DNA of 64,000 nt. It comes from an uncultured delta proteobacterium. GTDB lineage: Bacteria > Desulfobacterota > RBG-13-43-22. Each line of letters starts with the position of its first letter. Within the stretch, counting starts at the first letter, position 1. This document shows, piece by piece, positions 49,656 to 63,448 of this stretch. The notes under the pieces were generated by a model, which saw nothing but the letters and a program-made list of their open reading frames with translations, made no database searches and was not told the DNA's origin. The translations under genes and the position numbers were made by a program. The DNA lies in assembly GCA_963746605.1 (NCBI GenBank), contig CAVVCH010000007.1, positions 1,620 to 65,619 of the forward strand. Direction: 5' to 3'.

Positions 49656-50372
49656 CTAATCCAATTTAATCGAATCCTTGGTCTTTTCCCGTCGGTTGGA
49701 CTCCTTCTTATTATAGCTCGCCATGCAGGAATCATTTTGCCCCTTGGTCAGCGAGCAAACCAGATAATCCGAGATTTCGATGATGCAGGCTCGTATGGCC
49801 TTGCCCGTGGGGGTTTTCTCGTATTTCCCCAGGTCGCCGGATAGAATCCCGATGTGTCCCCCCAGGCTGAACCCGCTGGACTCCGAGGTAGCTTCCACGG
49901 TCCGGCTGTCCGCGATTTCCCCGGTATCGGTGTCGATTATCTTCAGATCCACGGCCATATAGGCCCTTTCCTGTTTCCCGCCGACTCGAAAGCCCATGAT
50001 CCCGATCCCGCCGCCGGTGCCCTGGGTATTCTCCTCGAAAGCGGAGACGGTGGCGGCTACCAGATACTTGGCCCCCTTAATTTTTCCGATTTTAGCCTTG
50101 GTCCGCGGATCGATCCGCCCGGAGGCTCCCAGATCCTGCTCCCCGATGACGGCATTGATTTCTTTTCGTTCCAATACCTGAAAAGCCTTGGTGGAGGCCA
50201 GTTCATTGACCAGCATGTCCTGGAGATCATAGCCCATGTTCCCTCGCCACCAACCGGCGGAGGTCTGGTTGGTGAACCGCAGCACCCCGAGGCGGGGCTT
50301 TTCCTGAGCCTCGGCCAGACAAAAAGAAAAAACAATCGTGAAAACAAACAACAGCGCAATGACTTTTTTCAT
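49656..50372 (-). CDS. CsgG/HfaB family protein
   Basis: Signal peptide; FQVLERKE...EQDL, GKIKGAKYLV, VDLKIIDTDTGEI. Confidence 0.85.
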   Translation of the reverse strand: MKKVIALLFVFTIVFSFCLAEAQEKPRLGVLRFTNQTSAGWWRGNMGYDLQDMLVNELASTKAFQVLERKEINAVIGEQDLGASGRIDPRTKAKIGKIKGAKYLVAATVSAFEENTQGTGGGIGIMGFRVGGKQERAYMAVDLKIIDTDTGEIADSRTVEATSESSGFSLGGHIGILSGDLGKYEKTPTGKAIRACIIEISDYLVCSLTKGQNDSCMASYNKKESNRREKTKDSIKLD

Positions 50373-50567
50373 GGTACCTCCTGATTCAATGAAATGAACT
50401 CGTCCTTTTCTGAGCAGAAAAATAGCCCAATCCGATTAAAAAAACAACCCTTAACCCGCTTACCTTTTTTTTCATTCTCAAGGAGTTTCATTCTTATTAT
50501 CGGGCGAACATAAAAATATTTAAGAAAATAGTTTATAAATAGGGGCCGAGGGATTCTAAAGCTCCGA

Positions 50568-50627
50568 TCTCTGTCATCCGTCATCCGTCATCTGCCCTCT
50601 GTCATCCGTCATCTGCCCTCTGTCGTT
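50568..50627 (+). repeat. CTGTCAT/CCGTCAT heptamer tandem array (right-arm orientation)
   Basis: ctctgtcatccgtcatccgtcatctgccctctgtcatccgtcatctgccctctgtcgt. Confidence 0.85.
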
Positions 50628-51028
50628 CTATCCCGCCTCGAGCATCCAGAAATGACGTTTTAATTATTCATCAAACAGGAGTTCGGGAAGTAAAACCAAT
50701 GTCGGGAAATAGACTAAAAAAAACCGGCTTATCGGATAGTTGCCAGGTAGGATAAACCTAGAGTTGTTCTTGAATTTATAAAAATGGTAGAGTATAATAA
50801 ATATTTCTATAATTGGCTTGACGGGTTATGGCACATGGCAATTCATCTCATAGCTCATGGCGAAAATACAGGGTACAAGGGCTTTATCTGAAAACGCCTA
50901 CTTTTGATAAATAGTTTCCATCGTTCTCTTATACTATTTATCGAAGAAGGCATGGGAAAGAATGTGAAGAAGAGGACAATTTCAAGGAAGAAATTCTGAC
51001 ACCCCATTCCTAAAGTAAAGGACAACGC

Positions 51029-51721
51029 ATGAAGAAGATCTTTGTTCCCTTCTGGATACTGAGTATTTTTCTGCTGTTCACCTCTTGCACGGCGGCGGTC
51101 AAAACGTCAGGGGCGCTGAACGTCCAGCCTGACCCGGCCCGGGATTATCAGATCCAAGTGGGCGATGCCCTGGACATCAAGTTTTTCTACCACCCCGAAT
51201 TGAACGAGTCGGTAGTGGTCCGGCCGGACGGCCGGATTTCACTCCAGTTGGTACACGAGGTCCAGGCCTCGGGCCTGACCCCGGAAACGTTGCGGGAAAA
51301 CCTCCGGGGAAAATACGAGCCACAAATCAGTAAACCGGAGATCGCCGTCATCGTCCGGTCCTTCACCGCCCAGAAGGTATACGTCGACGGGGAGGTGGCC
51401 AAGCCCGGGCTGATCCCCCTGACCGGCCGGATGACGGTCCTCCAGTCCATCGCCTCGGCCGGGGGATTGAAAGACACGGCCCGGACCAACGAGATCATCC
51501 TCATCCGCCGTGGCCCGGAAAACCGGCCGGCCTCAATGCTGGTGAACGTGGAAAAGGCGATCGACGGCAGCGATCCCTCACAGGACCTCTCGCTGCAGCC
51601 GGCGGATATCGTCTATGTCCCCAAGTCCCCGATCGCCAACGTCAACGTGTGGATTGACCAGTACATCCGGAAGAACATCCCGATCCAGTTGGGGCTTTAT
51701 TATAATTTAGTGCCGTACTAG
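51029..51721 (+). CDS. Polysaccharide export outer-membrane lipoprotein (Wza-like)
   Basis: Lipobox FTSC; YQIQVGD, VRPDGRIS, VYVDGEVAKPG, LQPADIVYVP. Confidence 0.92.
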   Translation: MKKIFVPFWILSIFLLFTSCTAAVKTSGALNVQPDPARDYQIQVGDALDIKFFYHPELNESVVVRPDGRISLQLVHEVQASGLTPETLRENLRGKYEPQISKPEIAVIVRSFTAQKVYVDGEVAKPGLIPLTGRMTVLQSIASAGGLKDTARTNEIILIRRGPENRPASMLVNVEKAIDGSDPSQDLSLQPADIVYVPKSPIANVNVWIDQYIRKNIPIQLGLYYNLVPY

Positions 51722-51771
51722 AGCTTATCTCAATGTCAAGCCTTCGTAACTAAGAGCTGACACAGGCAAAA

Positions 51772-51833
51772 GAGCTTATAGCTCATATGGTGAGCTGTAT
51801 TTGTATTTGCTCTGAGCTACGAGCCCTGAGCTA
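51772..51833. repeat. AGCTCAT / ATGAGCT heptamer inverted arms without cargo
   Basis: agcttatagctcatatggtgagct...ctgagctacgagccctgagctaa. Confidence 0.65.
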
Positions 51834-51847
51834 AAAGAAGGAGATCC

Positions 51848-53317
51848 ATGGAAACAACGAATTACCCGAATATTCAGGACTCGTCGGGCGGTAGCCTGCG
51901 CGATTTCCTGGCTATCCTCTTCAAGCGGAAGGCCGCCATCCTGACCATCTTTCTGGCTACGGTCATTACCGTGGCCGTCGGCTCCTTCCTGATGTCCCCC
52001 ACCTACGAGGCCCGGTCCAGCCTGCTGGTCAAGTTCGGGCGGGAGTTCATCTACCGGTCCGAGGTAGGGGACAAGGCCCCCATGATCTCCTTCAACCAGG
52101 AAGAGGCCATCAACTCGGAGATCAACATCCTGACCAGCCGGGACATCATCGAGCGGGTGATCAAGACCATCAAGCTGGAGAATATCTACCCGGAGCTGGC
52201 GAAGAACCCGCCGGCCAGGATGACGCCGATGGAAGCGGCGGTTATCGTCTTCCAGAAGAAGCTGACGGCCGAGGGGATCAAGAAGTCCAGCGTCATCGAG
52301 GTCTCCTTCCAGCACAAGGATCCCCAAGTGGCCGCCCGGGCCGTCAACCTGCGTGGTGGACTTCTTCAAGGAGAAGCACCTGGCGGTCCACAGCGGGACG
52401 GAATCGACTTTCCTGGAAAGTCAGACCGACCTGTACGACCAAGGAGCTCAAGAACTCGGAGAATCGCCTGGAGGCCTTCAGGCAGAAGAACCGGGTCTTT
52501 TCCCTGGACGAGCAGCGGAGCCTGCTCTTGAAGCAGCGCACGGAGCTGGACACCTCGCTGAAGAGCACCCAGAACCGGATCGACGAACTGGCCAAGAAGC
52601 TCGCTTCCCTGAGGGGCCAGATGAAAGGCATCCTGGCCGACAAGAACAACTACACCCAGACCGAGCGGGACAAGATCATCGTCGAGGCCCGGGCCAAGCT
52701 GCTCACCCTGCAGTTGAGCGAGCAGGACCTCTCCTCCAAGTACACGGACAACAACCGGCTGCTGGTCAACGTGCGCCAGGAGATCCAGATCGTCAGGGAT
52801 TTTCTGAAGGAGCAGGAGGAGGCCATCGGCGGCAAGGTGAAAACCAGCAACCCGGTTTACCAGGATGCGGAAAAGGGGGCCATGAACGCCGAGGCCGAAG
52901 AGGCTTCCTTACGGGCTAAGGCCGCCACCCTGCAGGCGCAGATCGGCCAGTTGGATGGCGAGATTAAGACCCTGGACCTCCGGGAAAAGGACCTCCAGGG
53001 ACTGAAGCGGGAGGTCAGCTACCAATGACAAGAATTTCCGGACCTACCAGGACAAGAAGGAGGAGGCCCGGATCTCCGACGAGATGAACCGCCAGAAGCT
53101 GGCCAACATCAGCGTCATCCAGGCCGCCGTGGTCCCCTCCAAGCCCATCAAGCCCAAAAAAGCCCTGAATGTCCTGCTGGGCATCATCCTGGGGGCCGTC
53201 TCCGGCCTGGGGTTCGCCTTCCTCTCCGAGTATACCAGCCAGCGCTTCACCTCCCCGGACAGCGTGGAGCAGCGGCTCGGGCTGCCGGTGTTGGCGACGA
53301 TAACGCTAAAAGAGTGA
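51848..53317 (+). CDS. Polysaccharide chain-length determinant (GumC/Wzc N-terminal type); three +1 frameshifts (~52352, ~52443, ~53025)
   Basis: LRDFLAILFKRK, PTYEA, ILTSR, coiled coil, A..P..PIKP plus TM, LGLPVLATI. Confidence 0.88.
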
Positions 53318-53331
53318 CGTGGTTAAAACTC

Positions 53332-53409
53332 GGATGACAGATGGCAGATGACAGAAAAAAACAGATGACAGATGACGGATGGCAGACGACGGTAAAGACC
53401 CGATGACGG
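53332..53409 (+). repeat. ATGACAG/ATGACGG heptamer left arm; last unit supplies the start codon
   Basis: ggatgacagatggcagatgacaga...gatgacagatgacggatggcagacgacggtaaagacccgATGACGG. Confidence 0.9.
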
Positions 53410-53792
53410 AACAGATTAAAAGCTTTCGGGATTTGCGGGTCTATCAAGCAGCATTTGAGTTGCAGCAAGAGGTTTTTAGGGTTTCCAAGTCCTTTCCAAA
53501 GGAAGAAATGTTCTCTCTGACAGATCAGATCAGGCGTTCATCGAGGGCCATCGGAGCCAATTTGGCAGAGGCCTGGCAAAAAAGACGTTATGAAGCTCAT
53601 TTTGTCAGCAAACTGAGCGATTCAGACGCCGAACAGGCCGAAACCCAGCACTGGCTGGACACGGCCCTGAATTGTAAGTATATCAAGCCGGAAGTTCAGG
53701 CCGGCCTCCTTGAAAAATGTCAAGAGATCGGCCGAATGCTCGGCACCATGATCAACAAACCCTCATCTTTTTGTCGCCAATTCTCAAAATGA
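53403..53792 (+). CDS. Four helix bundle protein (23S rRNA-IVP/Avd-like fold), intact
   Basis: SFRDLRVYQAA, FPKEEMFSLTDQIRRSSRAIGANLAEAW, ETQHWLD. Confidence 0.93.
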   Translation: MTEQIKSFRDLRVYQAAFELQQEVFRVSKSFPKEEMFSLTDQIRRSSRAIGANLAEAWQKRRYEAHFVSKLSDSDAEQAETQHWLDTALNCKYIKPEVQAGLLEKCQEIGRMLGTMINKPSSFCRQFSK

Positions 53793-53796
53793 TATT

Positions 53797-53937
53797 CCGT
53801 TATCTGTTATCTGTCCTCCGTCCTCCGTCATCCGGTCTTTCTCCGTCATCCGTCCTCTGTCATCCGTCATCCAGTCTTTCTCCGTCATCCGTCCTCTGTC
53901 ATCCGTCATCCAGTCTTTCTCCGTCATCCGGTCTTTA
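53797..53937 (+). repeat. CTGTCAT/CCGTCAT heptamer right arm with 39-bp higher-order repeat
   Basis: Reverse complement of the left arm; unit gtctttctccgtcatccgtcctctgtcatccgtcatcca starts at 53835 and 53874, partial at 53913. Confidence 0.9.
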
Positions 53938-53958
53938 CTCTGAGCCATGAGCTAACCC

Positions 53959-55411
53959 ATGTATCTCAATTATTATAATCTCCGGGCCGAACCCTTTCGG
54001 ATCACCCCCGACCCGGAATTCCTCTACCTGAGCCCCAGCCACCGGGAGGCTCTGGCGACCATCACCTACGCGGTGGAGCAGGGTAAGGGGTTCATGGCCC
54101 TGGTGGGCGAGGTGGGTCTGGGGAAGACGACGCTGCTGCAGGCCTTCCTGCAGGCAGCGACAGGGAGCCAAAGAAAAGGTCATCTATCTCTTCAATAGCC
54201 GCTTTTCCTACGGCGGGCTGCTCCGGGCACTGGCGCGGGAGCTGGACCTGGAGGTGACCTCCGAGGAACCCGAAGATCTCCTGGATCATATTTACCAGGC
54301 CCTGATCCGGGAATACGCCCGGGGGAACAATATCGTCCTCCTGATCGACGAGGCCCAGGGTCTGCCGGAGGAAACCCTGGAGGGGCTTCGGTTGATCTCC
54401 AACCTGGAGACCTCGACCGAGAAGCTGCTCCAGATCGTGCTGGTGGGCCAGCCCGAACTGGCCGCCAAGCTCGACCGCTACGAGCTGCGCCAGCTCAAGC
54501 AGCGGATCGCCGTCCAGGCCGTCCTGTCCCCCCTGACCCGGGAGGAAAGCCGGGAATACCTCCGGTTCCGGCTGGAAAAAGCCGGCGGGCGGGCCGAGGA
54601 TATTTTCACCCCCCGGGCCCTGGAAAGGATCGTCCGCCGGGCTAAGGGGATTCCCCGGGCCCTCAACATCCTGGCCGACAACGCCCTGGTGACCGGGTTC
54701 GGGTACCAGCGGAAACCCATTCCCCTCAAGGTGGTCAACGAGGTGTCGGCCGACCTGGAGGGTCGTAACAAATCGTTTTTCCGCCGCTGGGTCCCGGCTT
54801 CCCAAGCCGCTCTGCTGGTCGGCTTGGGGGTATTGGGGGCGTCCATCTATTATCAGCAGTCAGACTCGGGGCCCAAGGTCTCCATTACCTTGCGGGAGAA
54901 GGATCGGGCGGGGAAGGCCGCCGCCGTGAAGATTCCGCTCCAGGAGGATCCTCTGCAGGTCACCGGGATCCAGCCGGTCAGGGAGGGGGAAGTCATGAAC
55001 CTCGCGGCCCCGAATGGTCTGGCCCAAGGGAAAACCGAGGCCTCCAGCGGGCGGGAAACCTCGACCCCGGGCAGCCGGGGAAAAGAACCGGCTGCCACCG
55101 AAAAAAAACCGACGCCGGAAAAAGAAAACCTGGGCATTCCTCCTAAACGAAAGGTGGAGGTCGCTCCGTCCCCGGAACAACAGCCGGCTGCCGCCGAAGA
55201 GCATCCAGCCCCCGGGTTCCCCTTCACCCGGAAGGTCCGGAAAGGAGAAAACCTCTACCGCATGATCCTGGAGGTCTACGGCGCCAGCAATCCGGAATTG
55301 TGGGATCTGGTCCGGAAGCACAATCCGCGGATCAACAAGGACCTGAAGATACTGGTGGGGCAAAAGATCATCTTCCCGGAATGGAAACCAATAGCCAAAA
55401 ACGGAGGTTAG
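53959..55411 (+). CDS. ExeA-like AAA ATPase with TM and C-terminal LysM-like domain; +1 frameshift ~54165
   Basis: PFRITPDPEFLY, GEVGLGKT, IDEAQ, LVGQPEL, GIPRALN; VRKGENL...NPRI...ILVGQKIIFP. Confidence 0.88.
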
Positions 55412-55473
55412 CTCATAGCTCATAGCAAAAAACAGGGGTCAAGGGTTCGAGGATTCAAGGGTTCAAGTGAACT

Positions 55474-55776
55474 GCGGAACAGGGTGCTTTTATTCTAAGA
55501 GAGGGACGCCGACATACAATTTTCGAAAGAGGGATAGGATCTGTAAACAAATAACCTTGACAAACGGCCCCACAACCGTTCGCCCTGAGCTTGTCGAAGG
55601 GTGAATGATACGGCAATGCTTCGACAGGCTCAGCATGAACGGAGATATTAGCGGTATTGTACAGCTTATTTCTTGACGGGTTCTTAAGGAGGACCGAAGT
55701 TCCTCGCCACAGAGAAATTGTCGATGAATTGGCCAGGAAAATTTGTAAAGATCTCGACATTCCTTTTGTGAGGTAA
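55474..55776 (+). pseudogene. HicA toxin, 5'-truncated and interrupted by a MITE
   Basis: AEQGAFILREGRRHTIFERGI [MITE] RRTEVPRHREIVDELARKICKDLDIPFVR*; removing the MITE and one TSD restores the frame. Confidence 0.8.
55537..55683 (-). mobile_element. MITE family B, copy 2
   Basis: Reverse complement of 45111-45258; flanks ATA/TTA. Confidence 0.85.
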
Positions 55777-55779
55777 TCA

Positions 55780-55952
55780 ATGAAATACAGAGCGGTTATA
55801 AAAGAAGTTGGTGTGGATTGGATGGTTAATTGATCTGCCGGGGGTAAATGCTCAGGAGAAGAACAGGGAAGAATTATTAAAATCCCTTCGTATCGGAGCC
55901 GAGGATATGCCTGGCCACGATCGAAATCAACGATCCCCAATGGGCCGTTTAG
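55780..55952 (+). pseudogene. HicB antitoxin remnant (paralog of 62497-62706)
   Basis: MKYRAVIK...WIGWLIDLPGVNAQE...SLRIGAED with small deletions. Confidence 0.78.
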
Positions 55953-56083
55953 GGGTATAAACTATCAGCACTCGGCCCCTTGAACCCTTCGAATTCACTA
56001 TGAACTATGAGCTCCGAGCGATGACCTCTCTTGTCTTCGCCGTGAGCTATAAGCTACGAACTATGAGCTAAGTCGGAGATTTT

Positions 56084-56941
56084 ATGGGTAAAATCTATCA
56101 GGCTCTCCAAAAAGCCCGAGACAACCGGAGCAAACTCCAGGTTGTCGTAGGAGTCCGGGAAACAGCCCCTGACCTATCCGGAAGCGGCGCCGGCCCCGAA
56201 GCGCGAAGACCCCCCGACCCTGTCGATGTTCAAGCCGATCCTAGCCCCGGCCCCCCGGAGGCGGTGCCGATCCCGGCAGCGGTCCCGCAGGAAACCTTCC
56301 TTCCCCTGACCCTGGAATTGGAGGCGGAGAAAGAGATGGCCACGCTGTACCAGAATATCGAGGCCCTGGTGGGCCAGCCCCGGAAAAAGATCATCCAGTT
56401 CATCGGTTCCCATCCGGGGGAGGGGACCTCCACCATAGCCCGCGACTTTGCCCGGTTCTCGGCCTCCCGGCTGGGGAAAAAGGTGCTTTTCCTGGAGGGG
56501 GACCCGGCCGACTCCTCGCAGCCTTTTTCCGGCGGAGGCCGAATGGTCAGCCTGGAAGAGACGGTCCGCCGGGGGGAGGAGGTCGAAGGGGCCTTTGCCC
56601 AGTCTGAGGGAACCGGCCTGGCCGTCGGCCTGGTGGCTCGGGAGGAGGGATCCCTGATCCACTTCCTGGAATCCGAAGACCGGGCCCCGGTTTGGGAGCG
56701 CCTGAAAGAGCATTTCGACCTGGTGGTGATCGATTCTCCTCCGTTGTCGGCCTCCACCGCCGGCCTGGCCTTCTGCCGCCGAGCCGACGGGGTAGTCCTG
56801 GTCCTGGAAGCCGAACGTACCCGGGGCCCGGTGGCCGAAAAGGCCAAGGAGCAGATCCAGAAGAACGGGGGGAATATCCTGGGGGTGGTCTTCAATAAAA
56901 GGAAGTTTTACATTCCGAAGAGTATTTATAAAAGACTTTAG
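56084..56941 (+). CDS. CpsD/CapB family tyrosine-protein kinase
   Basis: MGKIYQAL; Walker A variant PGEGTST; VVIDSPP; ADGVVLV; LGVVFNKR. Confidence 0.88.
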   Translation: MGKIYQALQKARDNRSKLQVVVGVRETAPDLSGSGAGPEARRPPDPVDVQADPSPGPPEAVPIPAAVPQETFLPLTLELEAEKEMATLYQNIEALVGQPRKKIIQFIGSHPGEGTSTIARDFARFSASRLGKKVLFLEGDPADSSQPFSGGGRMVSLEETVRRGEEVEGAFAQSEGTGLAVGLVAREEGSLIHFLESEDRAPVWERLKEHFDLVVIDSPPLSASTAGLAFCRRADGVVLVLEAERTRGPVAEKAKEQIQKNGGNILGVVFNKRKFYIPKSIYKRL

Positions 56942-57015
56942 ATGACGGATGACAGATGACGAGACGGATGACGGAACGAAAGACCAGATGGCAGAAGACA
57001 GATGACGGATGACGG
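56941..57015 (+). repeat. ATGACAG/ATGACGG heptamer left arm
   Basis: gatgacggatgacagatgacgagacggatgacggaacgaaagaccagatggcagaagacagatgacggATGACGG; begins at the kinase stop codon. Confidence 0.9.
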
Positions 57016-57297
57016 AACAGATCAAAAGCTATAGGGATTTGAGGGTCTATCAGGCAGCCTTTGAGCTGCAGCAGGAAATTTTTGAGGTTTCCAAGGCCTT
57101 CCCCATTTTCTTCAGAAATCGGGATTTTTCGATTTCTGAAGGCCGAGACGCAGCACTGGTTGGATACGGCGTTGGATTGCAAATACATCAAACCGGAGAT
57201 TCACGCCGGCCTCCTCGAAAAATGCCAAGAGATCGGCCGCATGCTCGGCACCATGATTAACAAGCCTTCCTCCTTCTGTCGCCAATTCTCAAAATGA
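57009..57297 (+). pseudogene. Four helix bundle gene with central deletion
   Basis: MTEQIKSYRDLRVYQAAF...SKAFP, then palindrome ttcagaaatcg..cgatttctgaa, then AETQHWLD...FCRQFSK; lacks the KEE...QIRRS...AEAW block. Confidence 0.85.
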
Positions 57298-57307
57298 CCC
57301 GTTCTTT

Positions 57308-57547
57308 TCTGTCATCTGTCATCCGTCATCTGTCATCCGGTCTTTGGCCGCATGCTCGGTACCATGATCAACAAACCCTCATCTTTTTGCCGTAACTTCT
57401 CTAAATAATGAATCTTTTTCCGTCATCTGTCCTCCGTCCTCCGTCCTCTGGTCTTTTTCCGTCGTCCGTCATCTGTCCTCTGTCTTCTCCGTCCTCCGTC
57501 TCCGTCATCTGTCCTCCGTCTCCGTCTCCGTCATCTGTCATGAGCTA
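57308..57547 (+). repeat. CTGTCAT/CCGTCCT right-arm arrays enclosing an extra four-helix C-terminal fragment (57346-57408)
   Basis: Tandem heptamers; embedded GRMLGTMINKPSSFCRNFSK*. Confidence 0.85.
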
Positions 57548-57551
57548 ACCC

Positions 57552-58988
57552 ATGGTCCCCCTGCGCCGTAAAATCCTCCTCGATGCCCTCAAACTTTTCG
57601 ACCTTGCGGCCCTGGTCGGCTATTTCCTCTTCGCCGCTTGGGTCAGCTCGCGGGAAATGAAGGGCGTTTCCTTCGAGCAGGTGCTGGCCATGCGGATCAA
57701 GGTTTCGAACCTGTTGACCTTCTTGGGCTTCCTGCTGGTCTGGCACCTGATCTTTTCATTTTTCAAGCTCTACCATTCCCGGCGCCTCACCTCTATCCCC
57801 GAAGATATGCGTCAAATCATCAAGGCCGTCACCTTGGGGACTTTGGTACTCTTTGTGGCGGCGCTGGTTTTCAACATCCGGCTGGTCAATGGCCTCTTCC
57901 TGGTTGTTTTTTTTAGCGCCTGTACCGCTGGGACGATGGCCTCCCGCCTGGTGCTGAAAAAGGTCCTGGAGAAGATCAGGACGAAGGGCCGGAACCTGCG
58001 GAACATCCTCATAGTGGGCACCAACGGTCGGGCCCTGCGTATGGTGGACAGGATCTTGAGGAAACCGGAATTCGGCTACCAGGTCATGGGTTTCGTGGAC
58101 GAGGGCCGGGGCATGGCCGGTTTCGAGAAATCGGGCCACCGCCTGGTGGCTGACTTCAATAGCCTGCCGGCCCTGCTTCGCACCGAAGTGATCGACGAAG
58201 TGGCGATCTGCCTGCCCATCAAGTCCTATTACCAGCAGATTTCCCAGATCGTGTCCAACTGCGAGAAGCAGGGCATCATGGTCCGCTTCCTGTCGGACAT
58301 CTTCAACCTGAAACTGGGCCGGGTCAAGCCGGAGGAGTTCGACGAAGGGGCCTTTATCACCGTTTCCACCGGACGGATGGAAGGGTTCCCTTTGCTGGTC
58401 AAGTATGGGATGGATTTCATCGTTTCGCTGGTTTTGCTGGTTTTTTTATGCATCCCCTTTCTGGCCGTGGCCCTGCTGATTAAGATTACATCCAAGGGAC
58501 CCGTCTTTTTTATCCAGGACCGGGTGGGGCTCCACAAGCGGGTCTTCCGGCTGTATAAATTCCGGACCATGGTGGCCGACGCGGAGGCGAAAATCGCGGC
58601 CCTGGAGGGGCTGAACGAGGTGGACGGCCCGGCCTTCAAGATCAAAAACGATCCCCGGATCACCGGCATCGGCAAATTCTTGCGGAAAACCAGCATCGAC
58701 GAACTGCCCCAGTTGATCAACGTGTTGAAGGGGGAGATGAGCCTGGTCGGCCCGCGGCCCCTGCCCATCCGGGACTACAACGGGTTCGACCGGGACTGGC
58801 ACCGCCGGCGCTTCAGCGTCAAACCGGGCATGACCTGCCTCTGGCAGGTGAACGGCCGCGGCAATGTCTCTTTTTCCGAATGGATGAAAATGGACATGCA
58901 ATATATTGATCAATGGTCGTTCTGGTTGGATCTGAAAATTCTCGTATTGACAATCCCGGCAGCTTTAAGAGGTTCAGGCGCCTCCTAA
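57552..58988 (+). CDS. Polyprenyl glycosylphosphotransferase (priming sugar transferase, WcaJ-like)
   Basis: TM domain; ILIVG; YKFRTM, DPRIT..GKFLRKTSIDELPQL, SLVGPRP, KPGMTCLWQV. Confidence 0.95.
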   Translation: MVPLRRKILLDALKLFDLAALVGYFLFAAWVSSREMKGVSFEQVLAMRIKVSNLLTFLGFLLVWHLIFSFFKLYHSRRLTSIPEDMRQIIKAVTLGTLVLFVAALVFNIRLVNGLFLVVFFSACTAGTMASRLVLKKVLEKIRTKGRNLRNILIVGTNGRALRMVDRILRKPEFGYQVMGFVDEGRGMAGFEKSGHRLVADFNSLPALLRTEVIDEVAICLPIKSYYQQISQIVSNCEKQGIMVRFLSDIFNLKLGRVKPEEFDEGAFITVSTGRMEGFPLLVKYGMDFIVSLVLLVFLCIPFLAVALLIKITSKGPVFFIQDRVGLHKRVFRLYKFRTMVADAEAKIAALEGLNEVDGPAFKIKNDPRITGIGKFLRKTSIDELPQLINVLKGEMSLVGPRPLPIRDYNGFDRDWHRRRFSVKPGMTCLWQVNGRGNVSFSEWMKMDMQYIDQWSFWLDLKILVLTIPAALRGSGAS

Positions 58989-59103
58989 CTGGAGTTATTT
59001 GCCACGAGCCACGAGCTGTGAGCTCTTGAAAAAGGTATAGAGATCGATCGGGAGACTTTTCCGCATCGAAAGGGCGGTAGCCTGCCCTGAAAGGTTGAAC
59101 ATT

Positions 59104-59222
59104 GATGACGGATGACAGATGACAGATGACGGAACATATTAAACTTTCGAGATTTGCGGGTCTATCAAGCAGCTTTTGAGCCGCAGAGGAAATTGGACGA
59201 ATGCTCGGCAGTATGATCAAGG
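59104..59222 (+). pseudogene. Heptamer left arm plus minimal four-helix-bundle remnant (N-terminus fused to C-terminus)
   Basis: gatgacggatgacagatgacagATGACGGaacatattaaa...gatttgcgggtctatcaagcagcttttgag | gaaattggacgaatgctcggcagtatgatcaa. Confidence 0.8.
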
Positions 59223-59324
59223 GAGTGGCCAGCTTGGATGCCGCTTCCTTCAACAGTCTCGATCAAAAAAATGACTTGTAAGATGAATAAATGACTTGTA
59301 AAATAAAATTTATAGAGGTTTGTT

Positions 59325-59561
59325 ATGGAAACGGCGGTAACAAAGCGCGGGCAGACTGTCATCCCAGCCGCTATCCGGAAACGTTATCGGATAGACAACG
59401 GTGCTCATTTGGTTTGGCTAGATGACGGGGAGACGATAAAAGTTGTTCCGGTCACCGCCGACCCGCTACAAAACCTTCGGGGGCGAGGGCGGGGAAAGAA
59501 ATTGACCGAAAAATTATTAAATGAACGCCGTAGAGATCGCGATTATGAAAAACGGCCCTGA
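59325..59561 (+). CDS. AbrB/MazE/SpoVT family antitoxin
   Basis: VTKRGQTVIPAAIRKRY; GAGG RBS. Confidence 0.9.
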   Translation: METAVTKRGQTVIPAAIRKRYRIDNGAHLVWLDDGETIKVVPVTADPLQNLRGRGRGKKLTEKLLNERRRDRDYEKRP

Positions 59562-59759
59562 AAGCGGGAAACGGCCTTTATCAGGTTGAAAGCTTTCCAC
59601 CGTATTTCGCTGGCTGATGCTGTCATCGCGGCCTATGCCATTCGCCATGACGCCATCCTTATGCACAAGGACCCGGAATTTGAGGCCCTATCCGGTTCAC
59701 TGACCCTGGGATCGCTCCCCTATAAATCAGCAGTTGGAAATCGGAAGATCCCAGGCTGA
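59545..59759 (+). pseudogene. VapC PIN toxin lacking its N-terminal catalytic half
   Basis: Only RLKAFHRISLADAVIAAYA...LMHKDPEF...LPYK remains, out of frame with the ATG. Confidence 0.78.
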
Positions 59760-59773
59760 TTTCTTGGGGTACT

Positions 59774-60028
59774 ATGGTAAAAAAGAAAAAACCTGAATTC
59801 GGGGACTATAAGGAGGCTTCGGTCTGGTTCGATACAAGTGACCTGGCGGATTATCAGGATCAGATGGTTTCGGTAGATTTTTCGTTCGATCTGAGAAAAA
59901 TGCCTGACTTGGTGGCCTTGGACCGGGAAATTGCCAAGGATGTTAGACAGTTGTCCATAAGAGAACATATTCCTACCCGGACACTGGTTAATCGGTTGCT
60001 GAAAAAAGGCCTAGAAGGTCTCCATTAG
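59774..60028 (+). CDS. CopG/BrnA-like antitoxin, orphan
   Basis: PEFGDYKEASVWFDTSDLADY plus C-terminal RHH; no upstream toxin ORF. Confidence 0.7.
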   Translation: MVKKKKPEFGDYKEASVWFDTSDLADYQDQMVSVDFSFDLRKMPDLVALDREIAKDVRQLSIREHIPTRTLVNRLLKKGLEGLH

Positions 60029-60053
60029 TCTTATTATTGGCCGTGTCGACTTT

Positions 60054-60135
60054 CCTCCGTCATCTGTCATCCGTCGTCCGTCATCCAGTCTTTACCCGTC
60101 CTCCGTCATCTGTCGTCTGTCATCCGGTTTTTCCC
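60054..60135 (+). repeat. CTGTCAT/CCGTCAT right-arm array
   Basis: cctccgtcatctgtcatccgtcgtccgtcatccagtcttt...ctgtcatccggttttt. Confidence 0.85.
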
Positions 60136-60330
60136 GTCTGCCAGACCAGAAAGCCCAAAGCTTTACTGAATGGAGTGAGCAACGTCCCGCTTTACGCGGA
60201 GGTGTCGAAACTGCCTCCCTGCATGACCCTGGAAAAGGAGCAGCCCAAAGACCGCCGTAAAATCCAGGCAGGAGAGGTTAACCGATCGATAAACTTCCAT
60301 TTTAGCAAATGATATCCTGGGAGGACAGCC

Positions 60331-60570
60331 ATGCAGGATCTGTTAAACCGTATTACCTTTGACAAGGAGGTTCTTTGTGGGAAGCCTCTTATTCGAGGAC
60401 TACGGATATCTGTCGAAATGCTGTTAGAGTTACTGGCCAAAGGGGCTACACAGGAGGAGATCCTACAAGACTACCCCCAACTTGAACCAGATGACCTTCG
60501 GGCGGTTTTGCTTTATGCGCATCATCTAGTGGCCAGAGAAGATATTTTTGATCGTGTCGCAGTTGGGTAA
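60331..60570 (+). CDS. DUF433 antitoxin-like protein
   Basis: RITFDKEVLCGKPLIRGLRISV...EILQDYPQLEPDDLRA. Confidence 0.92.
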   Translation: MQDLLNRITFDKEVLCGKPLIRGLRISVEMLLELLAKGATQEEILQDYPQLEPDDLRAVLLYAHHLVAREDIFDRVAVG

Positions 60571-60575
60571 ACGCT

Positions 60576-60842
60576 ATGGATTTCTTGCTGGATGTCAATG
60601 CCAGTGGGGCCGTGGCCCAATGGTTAATTCACCGGGGTCATGACGTAGCCGAGGTCGGCCGGAAAGACCCCAAAATGAGTGACAGTGAGATTTTGAACTG
60701 GGCCGTAAGGGAACACCGGGTTATTATTACAACAGACAACGATTTTGAGGAAATGATCTGGCGACAGGGGAAGCCGCATTGTGGGGTTTTACGTCTGGAA
60801 AACTTGCCACGCTCTGAGGGTCTATCAAGCCGCCTAAAATGA
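60576..60842 (+). pseudogene. DUF5615 PIN-like toxin, probably 3'-truncated by a four-helix-bundle fragment
   Basis: FLLDVN, GHDV, SDSEIL, ITTDNDF, GVLRL; ends in tgagggtctatcaagccgcct, which matches ~57040-57060. Confidence 0.7.
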
Positions 60843-60932
60843 GCCTTTTGCCCAACGAGGACCTTCTATTGACCGCAGTGGCCCTCAAAGCCGACTATTT
60901 TCTTCAGAAATCGGCCCTTTGATTTCTGAAGC

Positions 60933-61010
60933 ATCCGTGCCAAGTTGATGCCTTCGTCCCAGACCAAATAGACCAGTAAGTTATGCAACTTAGAACCAAC
61001 GTCCCGCATT
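60933..61010 (+). repeat. Dispersed ~78-bp repeat, copy 1 (copy 2 at ~62182-62261)
   Basis: atccgtgccaa..gatgccttcgt.ccag.ccaaatagaccagtaagttatgcaactt.gaaccaacgtcccgcatta. Confidence 0.85.
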
Positions 61011-61075
61011 AGCGCATTACTTGGTTTTTCACTAATCAACAATCCGATCAAACAAATGGGCAAAAGGAGATTTTT

Positions 61076-61303
61076 ATGATTAAAACAAAAGGATTGGCTT
61101 TGCAGGAGGCTTTGGATGCGGCTGATCATCTGCCCTTTGAGGATCAGGAAACATTGATCGAATTATTGCAGCGACGTTTTGTAGAAAAAAGAAGAGTGGA
61201 AATAGCTCGACATGCTAGAGAGACCATCAGGGCGGTAAGAGAAGGCAGGGCCAAGTATGGGAATATTGACGACCTTAAAAAAGACCTGCTGGGAAAACCG
61301 TGA
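61076..61303 (+). CDS. Probable antitoxin
   Basis: AGGAG RBS; LPFEDQETLIELL; C-terminal GNIDDLKKDL; GTGA overlap with toxin. Confidence 0.75.
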   Translation: MIKTKGLALQEALDAADHLPFEDQETLIELLQRRFVEKRRVEIARHARETIRAVREGRAKYGNIDDLKKDLLGKP

Positions 61304-61584
61304 GGCAGCTATCCTGGTCAACCAGTTTCCGTAGGGCCTTTAAGAAAAGGGTCGAGGGTAAGGCCACCTTAGAAGATAGAGTTTTTGAGGTTTTGGGGAG
61401 GTTAGCCGAGGACCCATATCACCCACTTCTGAAATCTCATAAACTAAGCGGCGCCTTGAAAGGGCTGTGGACGTGCTGGGTGGAATATGACTGCCGGATC
61501 ATTTTTACTTTTGAAAAGGACCCTAAAGGGAGTGGCGAGTTAATCATATTGGTAGATATCGGCAAACATGACGAGGTCTATTAA
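61300..61584 (+). CDS. RelE/StbE/YafQ family mRNA interferase toxin, apparently intact
   Basis: WSTSFRRAFK, LKSHKLSG.LKGLW, YDCRIIF, DIGKHDEVY. Confidence 0.9.
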   Translation: MRQLSWSTSFRRAFKKRVEGKATLEDRVFEVLGRLAEDPYHPLLKSHKLSGALKGLWTCWVEYDCRIIFTFEKDPKGSGELIILVDIGKHDEVY

Positions 61585-61664
61585 CCAGGTTGTCATGGAG
61601 AAGTGTCAATGAGCTATGAGCTGTTTTGTCACATGTCAAGACCTGGCACCACAATACGCAGCGC

Positions 61665-61806
61665 CAAATTAGCCCAATTAAGGGAGCATGTGGAAGAGAG
61701 GCTGATCACGCATCTGCGAAAGCGGCACAAGGTCAGAGATAGAAAGATGGGATACCTCAGGTTCAAACGGAGGGCGTTGTACGAGAAGTACGGTCTCTAC
61801 AAAGTG
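61665..61806 (+). pseudogene. Group II intron RT/maturase C-terminal fragment
   Basis: LREHVEERLITHLRKRHKVRDRKMGYLRF...LYEKYGLYKV resembles the end of maturase domain X. Confidence 0.6.
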
Positions 61807-61949
61807 CATGTCAATAGATCAGGCCTCGGAATTTTGGGATAGCCATGATTTTACTGAATTCCCAGATATTCAGGAAGTAAAAGGGGTTCGTTTCAAATGG
61901 TCAAAAGAGAAAGTCGGGGTCTAACCCCTGAGGCTCTGTGGTTTTGAAC

Positions 61950-62095
61950 CTCCGCTTTCCGTCCTCCGGTCTTTTTCTGTCTTCAGCCCTCCGTCATCTG
62001 TCGTCTGTCATCCGTCATCAGGTCTTTTTCCGTCGTCTGTCGTCCGCCCTCTGTCATCTGGTCTTTATCCGTCATCTGTCGTCTGTCATCTGACC
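61950..62095 (+). repeat. CTGTCAT/CCGTCAT right-arm array punctuated by GGTCTTT
   Basis: ccgtcatctgtcgtctgtcatccgtcatcaggtctttttccgtcgtctgtcgtccgccctctgtcatctggtcttt. Confidence 0.88.
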
Positions 62096-62340
62096 TCGCG
62101 CCCCCGGCGGGCAGCCGGTCTCAAGAAATCGAGTGCCCGATTTCTGGAGATTGAAAGGCAGTAACCGTGTCCATCCGTAAAATCCGTGCCAAAAAAGATG
62201 CCTTCGTTCCAGTCCAAATAGACCAGTAAGTTATGCAACTTTGAACCAACGTCCCGCATTATATAAGATCTATGAGCTGTATTCCTCGAACCCTTGGACC
62301 CTGTTTCTTTGCCATGAGCTAAGCAAACCAGATAACTTCA

Positions 62341-62491
62341 TTGAAAAGAAATCAGCTTATAAAACATCTTAATTTAAACGGGCAACCCTTTTAAGAGAAG
62401 GACGTCGCCATAGCATCTTTAAAAAAGGCTTGGCTAAAACGGAAGTTCCAAGGCATTCTGTAAAGACTTGGACATCCCTTTTGTGAGGTAA
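62341..62491 (+). pseudogene. HicA toxin with internal deletion and frameshift
   Basis: MKRNQLIKHL...LLREGRRHSIFKKGLAKTEVPRH joined to CKDLDIPFVR*; lacks REIVDELARKI seen in the 55474 paralog. Confidence 0.78.
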
Positions 62492-62496
62492 TCATT

Positions 62497-62706
62497 ATGA
62501 AATATCGGGCCATTATAAGAAAATCCGGCGATTGGTGGATCGGGTGGCTGATTGATTTGCCGGGGGTCAATGCGCAGGAAAAAACAAAGAAAAAACTGTT
62601 TGAATCCTTAAGGATCGGCGCTGAAGATATTCTGGCCACCGACATATCTTTCGATCCCAAGACCGAAATGGCTACGATCGATGTTCCCGATCCTGCCTGG
62701 GCCTGA
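62497..62706 (+). CDS. hicB: HicB family antitoxin (short form)
   Basis: MKYRAIIRKSGDWWIGWLIDLPGVNAQEKT. Confidence 0.88.
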   Translation: MKYRAIIRKSGDWWIGWLIDLPGVNAQEKTKKKLFESLRIGAEDILATDISFDPKTEMATIDVPDPAWA

Positions 62707-62747
62707 TTTTTCATCCTCCTTCAGAATGGCTCCGTCCGTGCCGGGCA

Positions 62748-62799
62748 GCCGGTCTTTTTCTGTCCTCTGTCGTCTGTCATCTGTCATCCGGTCTTTTCC
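62748..62799 (+). repeat. CTGTCAT right-arm array
   Basis: ccggtctttttctgtcctctgtcgtctgtcatctgtcatccggtctttt. Confidence 0.85.
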
Positions 62800-62928
62800 C
62801 GTTTTGCTAATTGGGGAAACAAAGCAAGGAATAAAAGGTTTTATGATCAAATGATTCCCTTAGCTGATCAAATTTTCGATGATTTCCTGGAATGTCAGGA
62901 GGAAATTTCCGGTGAAAAGAGTTATTAA
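62800..62928 (+). pseudogene. RelE/Gp49-like toxin C-terminal remnant
   Basis: VLLIG..NKARNKRFYDQMIPLADQIFDDFLE; begins right at the heptamer array; overlaps the HTH start. Confidence 0.65.
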
Positions 62929-63241
62929 GGAATACAAGGATTTTTTTATTGAAGCCAATAAAACCATGACGCCTGAAAGCGTTGTCCGGGCCGAGGAAAA
63001 GGCCAATCAGATTATGCTGAATCTTAAACTGGGCGAACTACGAAAGGAATTAGGCATTAAACAGGGGGACATCAAGGGGTTCAGCCAATCCGGTGTTTCA
63101 AAAATCGAAGGCAGAGAAGACTTAAAGATCTCCACGCTTATTTCATATTGTAAAGCTCTTGGGGTGGAGGTTGAAATAAAGACTTTTTTAAAAAAAGCGC
63201 TACCGAAGTCAAGGTCAAAGGTCCTCCTTCGCGCGGGTTGA
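62912..63241 (+). CDS. XRE/HigA family HTH antitoxin
   Basis: AGGAGG RBS with GTG start; LGELRKELGIKQ...SQSGVSKIE..EDLKISTLISYCKALG. Confidence 0.85.
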   Translation: MKRVIKEYKDFFIEANKTMTPESVVRAEEKANQIMLNLKLGELRKELGIKQGDIKGFSQSGVSKIEGREDLKISTLISYCKALGVEVEIKTFLKKALPKSRSKVLLRAG

Positions 63242-63269
63242 AGACTATCTTTTGGAAATTCCAGCTCTT

Positions 63270-63400
63270 AGGCTCTGTAGTTCCGTCCTCCGTCGTCTGT
63301 CATCTGTCATCCGGTCCCTGTGGCTCTGATCTCTGAGGCTCTGAAGTTCTGTCATCCGTCATCTGTCCTCTGTCATCCGTCTTTCGTCGTCTGTCATCCG
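63270..63400 (+). repeat. CTGTCAT right-arm array with interleaved GGCTCTGA octamers
   Basis: ccgtcctccgtcgtctgtcatctgtcatccgg..ggctctgatctctgaggctctgaagttctgtcatccgtcatctgtcctctgtcatccg. Confidence 0.85.
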
Positions 63401-63448
63401 CAGTTTGGAGGATTACAAGTAGTGTATATTTTAGGCATTTCCGCATAC

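Follow-up and report, generated by a model that had tools for sequence, protein, structure and literature searches.

Results

Organization of the Spacer between the ATPase and Kinase Genes

The window, i.e., the whole stretch of 64,000 nt that was analyzed, comes from an uncultured delta proteobacterium (source genome G000; other genomes are numbered likewise). Between the stop codon of an ATPase gene (55409–55411) and the start codon of a kinase gene (56084) lies a gap of ∼660 nt separating two polysaccharide genes. The features of the spacer and its surroundings are listed below, where A/a, B/b and C/c denote the left/right arms of the respective families.

51771–51833, + strand: cargo-free hairpin of the AGCTCAT type, located between Poly_export and Wzz (A18 ... 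a16)
54254–55411, + strand: 3′ part of an ExeA-like AAA ATPase gene (Pfam AAA_22, E 4.5e-12)
55409–55426, + strand: A-left arm, TAGCTCA × 2.6 (TRF, 100% matches)
55434–55470, + strand: B-left arm, AGGGTTCA × 4.2 (TRF 55434–55467), ending in the inner boundary AAGTGAAC
55450–55533, + strand: hicA remnant, N-terminal part without start codon (tblastn with the HicA homologue P0153)
55535–55686, + strand: MITE of 152 nt within hicA (42 genome matches, 35 full length)
55684–55776, + strand: hicA remnant, C-terminal part including the stop codon (similarity to 60-aa HicA)
55781–55952, + strand: hicB remnant in three frames (tblastn with the HicB-family protein P0002)
55966–55992, + strand: B-right arm, ∼2.5 units, opening with the inner boundary CACTC (inverted repeats I5, I7, I11, I12)
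55998–56019, + strand: inner ATGAGCT-type right arm (I6: 16 nt, 94%)
56036–56071, + strand: outer ATGAGCT-type right arm, ending in ATGAGCTAA (I3: 19 nt, 89%; I4: 21 nt, 81%)
56084–56941, + strand: BY-kinase-like P-loop gene of the polysaccharide locus (ORF; weak Pfam AAA_31 match)
62265–62706, + strand: second hicAB copy (73% identity over 182 nt; tblastn)

The layer order given in a first-pass annotation of this DNA, namely AGCTCAT arm, 8-mer arm, hicA::MITE, hicB, 8-mer arm and ATGAGCT arms, was found to be correct, including its coordinates. The arms abut the flanking genes closely. The ATPase stop codon TAG forms the opening three bases of the left heptamer arm, and the outer right arm ends 12 nt upstream of the kinase start codon and 3 nt before a GGAG (56075–56078). 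The first codons of the hicA remnant overlap the B-left arm, whose inner boundary AAGTGAAC is also present in the B arms of G001 and G007. An N-terminal piece of the ATPase is found at 53959–54198 in a different frame; the G002 gene is continuous. Orthologues of the kinase are 83% (G002), 87% (G001), 69% (G007) and 60% (G019) identical. No terminator-like site was predicted on the + strand in 55300–56200, and the spacer lies between co-directional genes, with which it is presumably co-transcribed. A search of 50000–64000 against Rfam gave no match at E ≤ 0.1.

Complementarity and Predicted Pairing of the Arms

Both left arms consist of tandem units (period 7 × 2.6 and period 8 × 4.2), and the complementary units recur in the right arms. 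The arms of the A pair as well as those of the B pair are reverse-complementary beyond chance. This was assessed by aligning the reverse complement of each left arm to the rest of the spacer, with random genome stretches of equal length as controls. The A pair reached an inverted-match score of 14.0, which none of 400 controls attained (highest control 9.0), and the B pair a score of 12.0, which was reached by 1 of 400. The inverted repeats of the B-right arm are 20 nt (I5, 80%), 18 nt (I7, 83%) and 11 nt (I12, 100%) in length.

The proposal that the spacer folds with its arms paired was borne out by prediction, as the RNA ensemble matches the two outer arms (A-left and the outer a arm) to each other and likewise the two B arms. 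Between A-left and the outer a arm 16.5 of 19 nt are paired, with a pair probability of about 1.0 with 56036–56071, and between B-left and the b arm 16.3 of 37 nt. The inner ATGAGCT arm (55998–56019) does not pair with A-left (0.2 of 19 nt). The minimum free energy has a z-score of −4.0, and an equally good fold was seen in none of 20 shuffles. The cargo-free hairpin between the Poly_export and Wzz genes, which the first-pass annotation had named for comparison, folds with −22.9 kcal/mol (51761–51847).

A fortuitous resemblance or an error of assembly is in our view an extremely improbable origin of the arrangement. Both the shortness of the right 8-mer arm, with 11 nt matching perfectly, and the frame breaks in the assembly would fit such an origin, but the controls above argue against chance, and arms of these families are also found in four related genomes. 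Moreover, short contigs from other public sequencing runs span 55364–55460 (ATPase end, A-left and B-left) and 55915–56068 (hicB into the b and a arms), with about 96% identity or better. The best of these runs holds 0.21 of the sampled words and the matching contigs are short DNA contigs; none of the run contigs listed bridges the hicA–MITE junctions. One extra 8-nt unit in B-right was seen in contigs of two runs (X1 and X3; the X4 rows repeat those of X3), so that related strains differ in the copy number of the 8-mer. Some contig joints skip 501–509 nt between the B arms. Their shorter side is only 20–21 nt and could stem from the B hairpin of any organism, and they are thus not evidence for an empty allele.

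The Insert: hicAB Relic and MITE

The translation of 55639–55773 gave 427 protein matches at E ≤ 0.01, the best of which are 60-aa HicA proteins with PF07927 (71–93% identical). By tblastn, the first codons of hicA are gone and the gene is interrupted by the MITE. It lies upstream of hicB with a gap of 4 nt. The hicB remnant matches P0002 with 75% identity over 36 aa and in two shorter pieces in other frames. The insert resembles HicAB type II toxin-antitoxin pairs in the order hicA then hicB and in its strong similarity to 60-aa HicA (PF07927) and 69–75-aa HicB-family proteins. It differs in that both genes are broken and in that the Pfam HicA and HicB models find no match at the spacer: six-frame searches of the genome yielded 9 and 4 matches, respectively, none of them here at E ≤ 1. 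The identity of the genes was therefore settled by homology searches with the translated pieces. Sequencing errors may account for the frame breaks in hicB; the reading frame also shifts in two other genes of the window, those for Wzz and the ATPase, at places where it does not in G002. The second hicAB copy has lost ∼31 nt from within hicA, and its hicB is an intact 69-aa ORF (62497–62706) with 1695 relatives, named HicB family in their sources. This intact paralogue gave no Pfam or NCBIfam match at E ≤ 0.1.

The MITE is short and non-coding, is present in many copies (79–98% identity) and has terminal inverted repeats, which are imperfect (28 nt, 71%; arms I1 and I2). Full-length copies carry TTA or TAA on both sides, i.e., a 3-nt target-site duplication. 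It may be akin to Tourist-like MITEs or IS5-family derivatives with 3-bp TWA duplications. It resembles Tourist-like MITEs in its length of 152 nt, absence of coding sequence, imperfect terminal repeats, 35 full-length copies and TTA/TAA flanks. It differs from them in that the spacer copy is itself flanked by ATA and TTA, and in that no autonomous parent was found via end pairs, those 250–3500 nt apart resembling neighbouring MITE copies only.

The first-pass annotation had placed a REP hairpin inside the MITE as a separate, innermost layer. This hairpin (55576–55599/55619–55642; 24 nt, 83%; 21.8 of 24 nt paired in the RNA ensemble) instead belongs to the MITE, as 33 of the 35 genomic matches to its core lie within MITE copies. 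A REP/RAYT system was rejected, since the core is not dispersed on its own and is absent from all six RAYT loci examined; its best alignments to these loci scored 8–10.5, which we judge to be about chance level.

Elements landing within elements are known from REP/BIME sequences, which are targeted by the insertion sequences IS1397 and ISKpn1. The word arms are similar in being palindromes between operon genes that serve as landing sites. They differ from REP/BIME in that they consist of tandem words rather than the REP consensus and that no RAYT link was found (6 loci), and the MITE differs from REP-targeting insertion sequences in that it sits in hicA at a TWA site and not at a hairpin tip. 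Across the genome, one MITE copy was observed within a hairpin span against 0.13 expected, a count too low for concluding that insertions favour loops.

Orthologous Spacers and Order of the Layers

The spacer between the ATPase and kinase genes was compared in five genomes, with the following arrangements of arms.

G019 (more distant relative): no arms
G007 (sister genus): A a only, an AGCTCAT-type hairpin of ∼110 nt
G002: single a array only
G001 (same genus): C C C c c b b
G000 (source genome): A B [hicAB::MITE] b a a

Among these five spacers, hicAB and the MITE are private to G000, b is common within the genus and A is common across genera. The outer layers are thus more widely shared, which is consistent with their being older. 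A relative with the outer arms only, for which the first-pass annotation had proposed to look, is represented by G007. The earlier suggestion that arm families insert into each other's loops is the best reading of this junction, with the outer hairpin alone in G007 and none in G019.

The spacer is, in our view, likely to be an insertion scar built up in layers, whose nesting records the order of arrival and holds no code. In the order that we infer, the spacer would first have held a resident hairpin of tandem AGCTCAT words, beginning at the ATPase stop codon and ending 12 nt short of the kinase start. Its loop would then have received another hairpin, which belongs to the 8-mer AAGGGTTC family. 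hicAB would have entered the 8-mer loop and decayed, with loss of the hicA 5′ end and breakage of the hicB frame, and the 152-nt MITE would finally have landed in hicA with a TWA target duplication. At the RNA level, the stems may pair and so sequester the insert or take it out, perhaps through cleavage by RNase III, as happens with rRNA intervening sequences.

Some details of the order are less firm. The distance to G000 is about the same for G001 and G002, so that "B after A" is not rooted on the tree. By eye, a possible single-unit remnant of B-left can be seen within the C pair of G001, which would make a crossing order. Together with the C ... c b b arrangement of this spacer, it suggests that later rearrangement or loss of arms is frequent, which makes parsimony over five genomes weak.

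Alternatively, the spacer could be a single composite element, with AGCTCAT words, an A-rich linker and 8-mer words as the parts of a bipartite terminal inverted repeat and with hicAB brought in by a single event. The left end, A-linker-B, is indeed repeated in the window at 62283–62335 on the minus strand (85.7% over 49 nt), and also occurs in G001 (beside the start of a sugar-transferase gene), G002 and G020. In total, the A-linker-B pattern was found in 6 of 21 family genomes (7 matches), against none for a reversed control pattern. A looser A-then-B pattern gave 161 matches against 103–115 in shuffles and was too noisy, so only matches read by eye were kept. Two of the seven A-linker-B matches (G006 and G010), however, show, as we read them, an AGCTCAT that adjoins a plain B hairpin by chance. 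Both families also occur separately: A-only hairpins at the ATPase–kinase junction of G007, at 51771–51833 of the window and in the rRNA spacer, and B-only hairpins at the polyexp>wzz junctions of G007 and G001 and at wzz>atp of G019. The second hicAB copy is preceded by the inverted A-linker-B end and thus lies outside, not within, it.

hicB loci elsewhere also speak against a composite element. Flanks of 250 nt or more on either side were available for 55 of 80 metagenomic loci surveyed. In 3 of the 55, an inverted repeat spanned the cassette, each time alongside a stronger direct repeat, and tandem 7–8-nt word arms were absent from the best 25 inverted matches, i.e., seen at 0 of 55 other hicAB loci among the matches inspected. 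Judged from these sequence comparisons, the word arms do not belong to a mobile unit of hicAB, and we regard arrival as one composite element as unlikely.

Nesting of Arm Families

The first-pass annotation had further proposed that the identity of the arms behaves like a matched bracket code, in which brackets close in the reverse order of opening. In 19 spacers from five related genomes, nine hold at least two arm families, and only one of these, the G000 locus itself, is fully nested and balanced. Another has a nested core with extra arms, one is crossing (B A ... b a) and six contain arms without partner. A right-hand ATGAGCT arm lacks its left partner in six spacers. The genome-wide count of nested against interleaved pairs likewise failed to reveal a code. 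At a relaxed threshold (102 pairs), one nested pair, the spacer locus, and one crossing pair of different families were seen, the latter (C45) having a 9-nt partner and probably being due to chance. At a strict threshold (81 pairs) there was neither a nested nor a crossing pair of different families, and one same-family crossing pair was present at both. One nested against one crossing pair, or none against none, makes no statistical case for a code, and the test has no power at such counts. As the units are self-contained palindromes or cassettes, stepwise insertion yields only nested or serial order. Single-linkage clustering of the repeat units was dropped because almost every heptamer ended up in a single family of 473 arrays.

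The nested stems could also have been selected as an RNA device that folds away the 660 nt and juxtaposes the ATPase stop codon with the kinase ribosome-binding site, serving translational coupling or controlled processing, with arm identity ensuring correct pairing. The positions of the arms would suit such a device, A-left opening with the stop codon itself and the outer arm stopping 3 nt short of GGAG, as would the predicted ensemble with its outer–outer and inner–inner pairing. A precedent is found in the STRR heptamer hairpins of filamentous cyanobacteria, e.g., between hupS and hupL, for which a role in transcript stability or translational coupling has been proposed (PMC2670836). However, right arms without partner precede start codons in six spacers, one spacer is crossing, and orthologous junctions carry different words (polyexp>wzz: A here, B in G001 and G007). 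In addition, the cargo consists of dead genes and a transposon, and TGAGCTAA before start codons has no genome-wide signal (7 of 30 sites). Thus, while folding might, according to the model, bring the flanking genes together, we find selection for it very unlikely.

Word Hairpins in the Genome and in Relatives

The arms of the spacer belong to a class of heptamer-word hairpins resembling cyanobacterial STRR and 23S rRNA intervening sequences. Genome-wide, 492 seed arrays had 115 inverted against 29 direct partners; after merging, 81 pairs resulted, whose loops have a median length of 72 nt. Inverted arms of period 7 flank 7 of the 11 PF05635 genes in the genome, with scores of 22–38 against at most 13 in shuffles. 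The spacer locus is not such a gene-bearing hairpin, as its loop holds hicAB relics and the MITE; PF05635 is carried by neighbouring spacers. The B arms are a real family; in relatives they form simple hairpins and, in one case (kin>sugT of G007), enclose a PF05635 homologue. As a genome-wide signal preceding start codons, TGAGCTAA was rejected (7/30 sites against 10–25% for six control words).

Intervening sequences of 23S rRNA carry an S23p/PF05635 ORF, as in Leptospira and Coxiella. The word hairpins share with them a long stem, optional cargo in the loop and, presumably, a location in a transcribed region; here, period-7 arms surround 7 of 11 PF05635 genes and an A-type hairpin lies in an rRNA spacer. 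The ATPase–kinase copy differs in lying between protein genes and in holding a hicAB relic instead of PF05635, and RNase III excision is hypothetical here. To our knowledge, STRR heptamer hairpins and the PF05635 "intervening-sequence protein" have been unexplained for decades. Among the PF05635 papers listed, no title or abstract opening dealt with repeat arms. With STRR the hairpins have in common tandem arms of 7-nt words and a location between genes that are co-transcribed in the case of STRR (PMC2670836) and presumably so here. They differ in host, an uncultured delta proteobacterium, in their words, in the 8-nt units of one family and in the nesting of elements in the loop.

The A-type (AGCTCAT) hairpin of the rRNA operon is located between tRNA-Ile and tRNA-Ala in the 16S–23S spacer. 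At the same site, G005 has the same hairpin, G006, G009, G010 and G012 have other heptamer words, and G002, G003 and G023 have no word hairpin. Close relatives thus differ in their words at identical positions of the polysaccharide operon, as at the polyexp>wzz junction (A words in G000, B words in G001 and G007), and of the rRNA spacer. The ATPase–kinase junction forms a natural series from empty, via outer hairpin only, to outer and inner hairpin with cargo. Both observations suggest that the hairpins are gained and lost as discrete units within transcribed spacers and can accommodate further insertions.

A wider reading, which we put forward tentatively and hold to be rather doubtful, is that word hairpins are RNA-level intervening sequences of operons as well as of rRNA, whose stems are cut or sequestered such that the loop cargo stays out of the working transcript. 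If so, loops would be safe harbours in which toxin-antitoxin pairs, MITEs and PF05635 genes accumulate in nested fashion. The spacer locus does not demonstrate a new mechanism; it supplies constructs for probing RNase III processing and translational coupling.

Three features would count as signs of such RNA-level intervening sequences: the AGCTCAT hairpin in the rRNA spacer, the arm starting exactly at the upstream stop codon and the right arms conserved just before start codons.

The layered ATPase–kinase spacer

The ~660-nt spacer between an ATPase and a kinase gene sits within a polysaccharide export locus of a metagenome-assembled genome of 4.56 Mb (62 contigs), in which the window covers positions 1620-65619 of contig C7. 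It is a clear, ordinary-in-kind accumulation of elements within elements inside a word hairpin, that is, a hairpin whose arms are built of tandem 7–8-nt words. Left and right arms are written A/a (AGCTCAT-type), B/b (8-mer) and C/c (GATGACA-type).

Features of the locus (window positions)
51029-51721, Poly_export gene
51848-53317, Wzz-type gene, in pieces
53379-53792, PF05635 four-helix-bundle gene
53959-54198 plus 54254-55411, ExeA-like AAA ATPase
55409-55411, ATPase stop codon TAG, the first triplet of the A-left arm
55409-55426, A-left arm, TAGCTCA x2.6, followed by a 7-nt A-rich linker
55434-55467, B-left arm, AGGGTTCA x4.2
55535-55686, 152-nt MITE inserted in hicA
about 55966-55992, B-right arm, complementary 8-mer
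55998-56019, inner ATGAGCT-type right arm
56036-56071, outer ATGAGCT-type right arm, ending in ATGAGCTAA 12 nt upstream of the kinase ATG
56084-56941, BY-kinase-like gene
about 57009-57297, second PF05635 gene, broken
57552-58988, sugar transferase

We aligned the reverse complement of each left arm with the other 613 nt of the spacer, taking 400 equal-length random stretches of the genome as controls. The inverted match of the A arm scored 14.0, which none of the 400 controls reached (top control 9.0), and that of the B arm scored 12.0, reached by one. The inner boundary of the B pair (AAGTGAAC in the left arm and the complement in the right) also occurs in B arms of relatives. One added 8-nt unit in the B-right arm is seen in contigs of two public sequencing runs (X1 and X3; X4 duplicates the rows of X3); the number of units differs among related strains.

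The MITE has 42 matches in the genome, 35 of them full-length at 79–98% identity. Copies lie between two TTA or two TAA triplets, a 3-nt TWA duplication of the kind typical of IS5/Tourist-type elements; the copy in the spacer has ATA and TTA. Its internal hairpin (24-nt arms, 83%, 19-nt loop) is what the first-pass annotation had taken for a REP hairpin forming a separate innermost layer. Some insertion sequences target REP elements. As 33 of the 35 matches to the hairpin core fall within MITE copies and the hairpin is absent from six RAYT loci (top local alignment scores of 8–10.5, judged without a control to be at chance level), we rejected it as a further nested element and regard it as part of the MITE. 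Apart from this layer, the proposed order A, B, hicA::MITE, hicB, b, a was confirmed. Contigs from four runs on wetland and soil also contain the hairpin arms, which reach very high summed depth and have other loop sequences there, so the palindrome is widespread beyond this genome.

The hicAB relic

The translation of 55639-55773 gave 427 protein matches at E<=0.01, the top ones being 60-aa, PF07927-bearing proteins named HicA (71–93% identity). Using tblastn with one HicA homologue, the N-terminal piece of hicA was found to begin within the B-left arm, with no start codon, and to end in HTIFERG; after a break of ~150 nt, reading restarts at LRRTEVPRH and continues to the stop at 55774-55776. 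Four nucleotides downstream lies hicB, spread across three different frames. A six-frame genome search with the Pfam HicA and HicB models had no match in the locus at E<=1, so the name hicAB stands on homology instead of a profile match. A diverged second copy at 62265-62706 (73% identity over 182 nt) has an intact hicB of 69 aa with 1695 relatives (source name "HicB family"), which had no match in Pfam or NCBIfam at E<=0.1.

The reading frame also shifts inside the Wzz-type (51848-53317) and ATPase (53959-55411) genes, of which the orthologues in G002, a genome of the same genus, are single-frame and continuous; either sequencing error or operon decay would account for this. The frame breaks in hicB may be sequencing errors. 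Such errors do not account for the MITE or for the absent 5′ end of hicA.

The arms could have been a component of the hicAB unit. We examined the 55 of 80 metagenomic loci of this HicB family that have at least 250 nt on each side. An inverted repeat spanning the cassette exceeded shuffles in three, all of which had a stronger direct repeat, and none of the best 25 inverted matches had a tandem-word build. The arms are thus no part of a hicAB unit, and we rejected that origin.

Orthologous junctions and the origin of the layers

ATPase–kinase spacers in this genome and its relatives (kinase identity; spacer; arms)
G019, more distant relative: 60%; 88 nt; no arms
G007, sister genus: 69%; 120 nt; A a only
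G002, same genus: 83%; 100 nt; 9-mer doublet and a single a array
G001, same genus: 87%; 432 nt; C C C ... c c b b
G000, this genome: A B [hicAB::MITE] b a a

The outer arm crosses genus boundaries, sharing of the 8-mer right arm stays within the genus, and only this genome has the gene relics and MITE. Stepwise insertion predicts such a pattern, in which outer layers are the more widely shared, and G007 provides a relative with the outer arms alone. The suggestion that elements inserted into each other's loops is thus supported for this locus. In the G001 spacer a possible single-unit B-left remnant was seen by eye within the C pair; if real, it would mean a crossing order. At the Poly_export–Wzz junction the window has A arms, and G001 and G007 have B arms.

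Alternatively, A units, A-rich linker and B units may form one composite end. This left end recurs inverted at 62283-62335, adjoins the sugar-transferase start in G001 and is also present in G002 and in G020, another family genome; a pattern search hit seven sites, spread over 6 of 21 family genomes, and the reversed control gave no match. However, two of the seven read as chance AGCTCAT beside a plain B hairpin, and the A-only and B-only hairpins at orthologous junctions argue against a composite end. We keep it alive as a less likely rival of stepwise insertion.

It had further been proposed that arm identity behaves like a matched bracket code. We annotated A, B and C arms in 19 spacers of five genomes. 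An arm had to show two adjacent units and no more than 2 mismatches, so degenerate arms can escape. Arms were found in 17: seven single-family hairpins, one lone a array and nine mixed-family spacers. Among these nine, only the ATPase–kinase spacer of this genome is fully nested and balanced, one combines a nested core and extra arms (G001 Wzz–ATPase, B C C C c b c a), one has a crossing order (G001 kinase–sugar transferase, B A ... b b a; sequence checked), and six have partnerless arms. In six spacers a right-hand a arm directly precedes a start codon and no left A is present. Genome-wide, 492 period-7/8 seed arrays had an inverted partner in 115 cases vs a direct partner in 29; the inverted partners merged into 81 pairs (median loop 72 nt), none of them nested in or crossing a pair of another family. 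With the threshold relaxed, 102 pairs gave one nested case, this locus, and one crossing case, which is probably chance. Nesting of arm families is thus rare and partnerless arms are common, a nested-to-crossing count of this size has no power, and a code is not supported. Nor is one needed, since a palindromic unit inside a palindromic unit yields only nested or serial order.

The minimum free energy of 55400-56085 was −224.8 kcal/mol vs −190.1 ± 8.7 for shuffles (z = −4.0; 0 of 20 as low). In the partition function, which is an equilibrium prediction only, A-left paired with the outer a arm over 16.5 of 19 nt and with the inner one over 0.2 of 19, B-left with b over 16.3 of 37 nt, and the MITE through its inner hairpin (21.8 of 24 nt; terminal repeats, 0.3 of 28). 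The arms are accordingly predicted to pair, A with outer a and B with b; that the spacer folds away, as first suggested, is a prediction. Within 55300-56200 no terminator-like site was found on the + strand, and the two promoter-like matches lie inside the shuffle range (1.0 ± 1.1).

Word hairpins elsewhere in the genome

The locus is useful as a comparative series for the word-hairpin class. The genome has 508 period-7 tandem arrays, and hairpin families such as GAACATC and AAATCCG with arms of about five heptamers and loops of 16–85 nt. Inverted repeats lie within 350 nt of 7 of 11 PF05635 matches (scores 22–38 vs at most 13 in 30 shuffles), with a best internal period of 7 in all seven, and a PF05635 homologue lies inside a B-armed spacer of G007. 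Among GAACATC-armed hairpins (G000:C45:70923-71424; short copies include C61:59858-59994), the loops of those of ~135 nt hold the PF05635 gene start (ATG AAG AAA CAG, on one strand), and such short hairpins look like internal-deletion derivatives of gene-bearing copies. The PF05635 protein at the Wzz–ATPase junction (53379-53792) is 94.6% identical to its G002 counterpart at the same junction (L021 3965-4351), above the 83–92% of the flanking genes; the homologue there is distant (48%) in G001, broken in G007 and missing in G019.

Heptamer STRR hairpins are described between hupS and hupL in cyanobacteria, with transcript stabilisation or translation coupling as possible roles (PMC2670836), and TAACTGA heptamers immediately upstream of starts in Beggiatoaceae (PMC4679880). 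In this genome, starts preceded by TGAGCTAA are confined to the one operon, and the word shows no enrichment before starts outside it (7 of 30 sites). It precedes four genes of the locus (51826-51850, 53940-53961, 56063-56086, 57535-57554), in two of which CCCATG follows directly, without a Shine-Dalgarno sequence.

Downstream of the sugar transferase, a 4.5-kb tract (58988-63500) holds small toxin-antitoxin genes and relics: MazE/AbrB with a PIN fragment, two CopG-type antitoxin ORFs, DUF433 with DUF5615, a YafQ/RelE-type toxin, hicAB and an HTH_3 gene. TCCGTCA-type arrays follow several of them in the same orientation, with no inverted pairs. A 79-aa ORF (61603-61842) starts in an ATGAGCT doublet; it had no match in Pfam or NCBIfam at E<=0.1, and may resemble the C-terminus of a group II intron maturase.

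An A-type hairpin (TAGCTCA x4.4 and complement) takes up the 77-nt gap separating the two tRNAs of the 16S–23S spacer (G000:C52:167935-168003; L112 86-154; L114 2136-2202), which from their sequences would be tRNA-Ile and tRNA-Ala (Rfam names tRNA only). At this spot G005 has the same hairpin, G006 and G009 an AAATCCG-type one, G010 and G012 one of other words, G002 and G003 a small plain hairpin in a spacer of 27 nt, and G023 50 nt without a word hairpin. The varied words here and at the Poly_export–Wzz junction suggest that word hairpins turn over as units in transcribed spacers. The 23S rRNA match (L114 2440-5602) spans 3163 nt vs a 2925-position model and contains a 28-nt, 89% inverted repeat (3705-3732 / 3838-3865) with a 105-nt loop, the arms of which are not heptamer words. 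The extra length and the repeat make it a candidate intervening sequence, an element that in rRNA can carry an S23p ORF.
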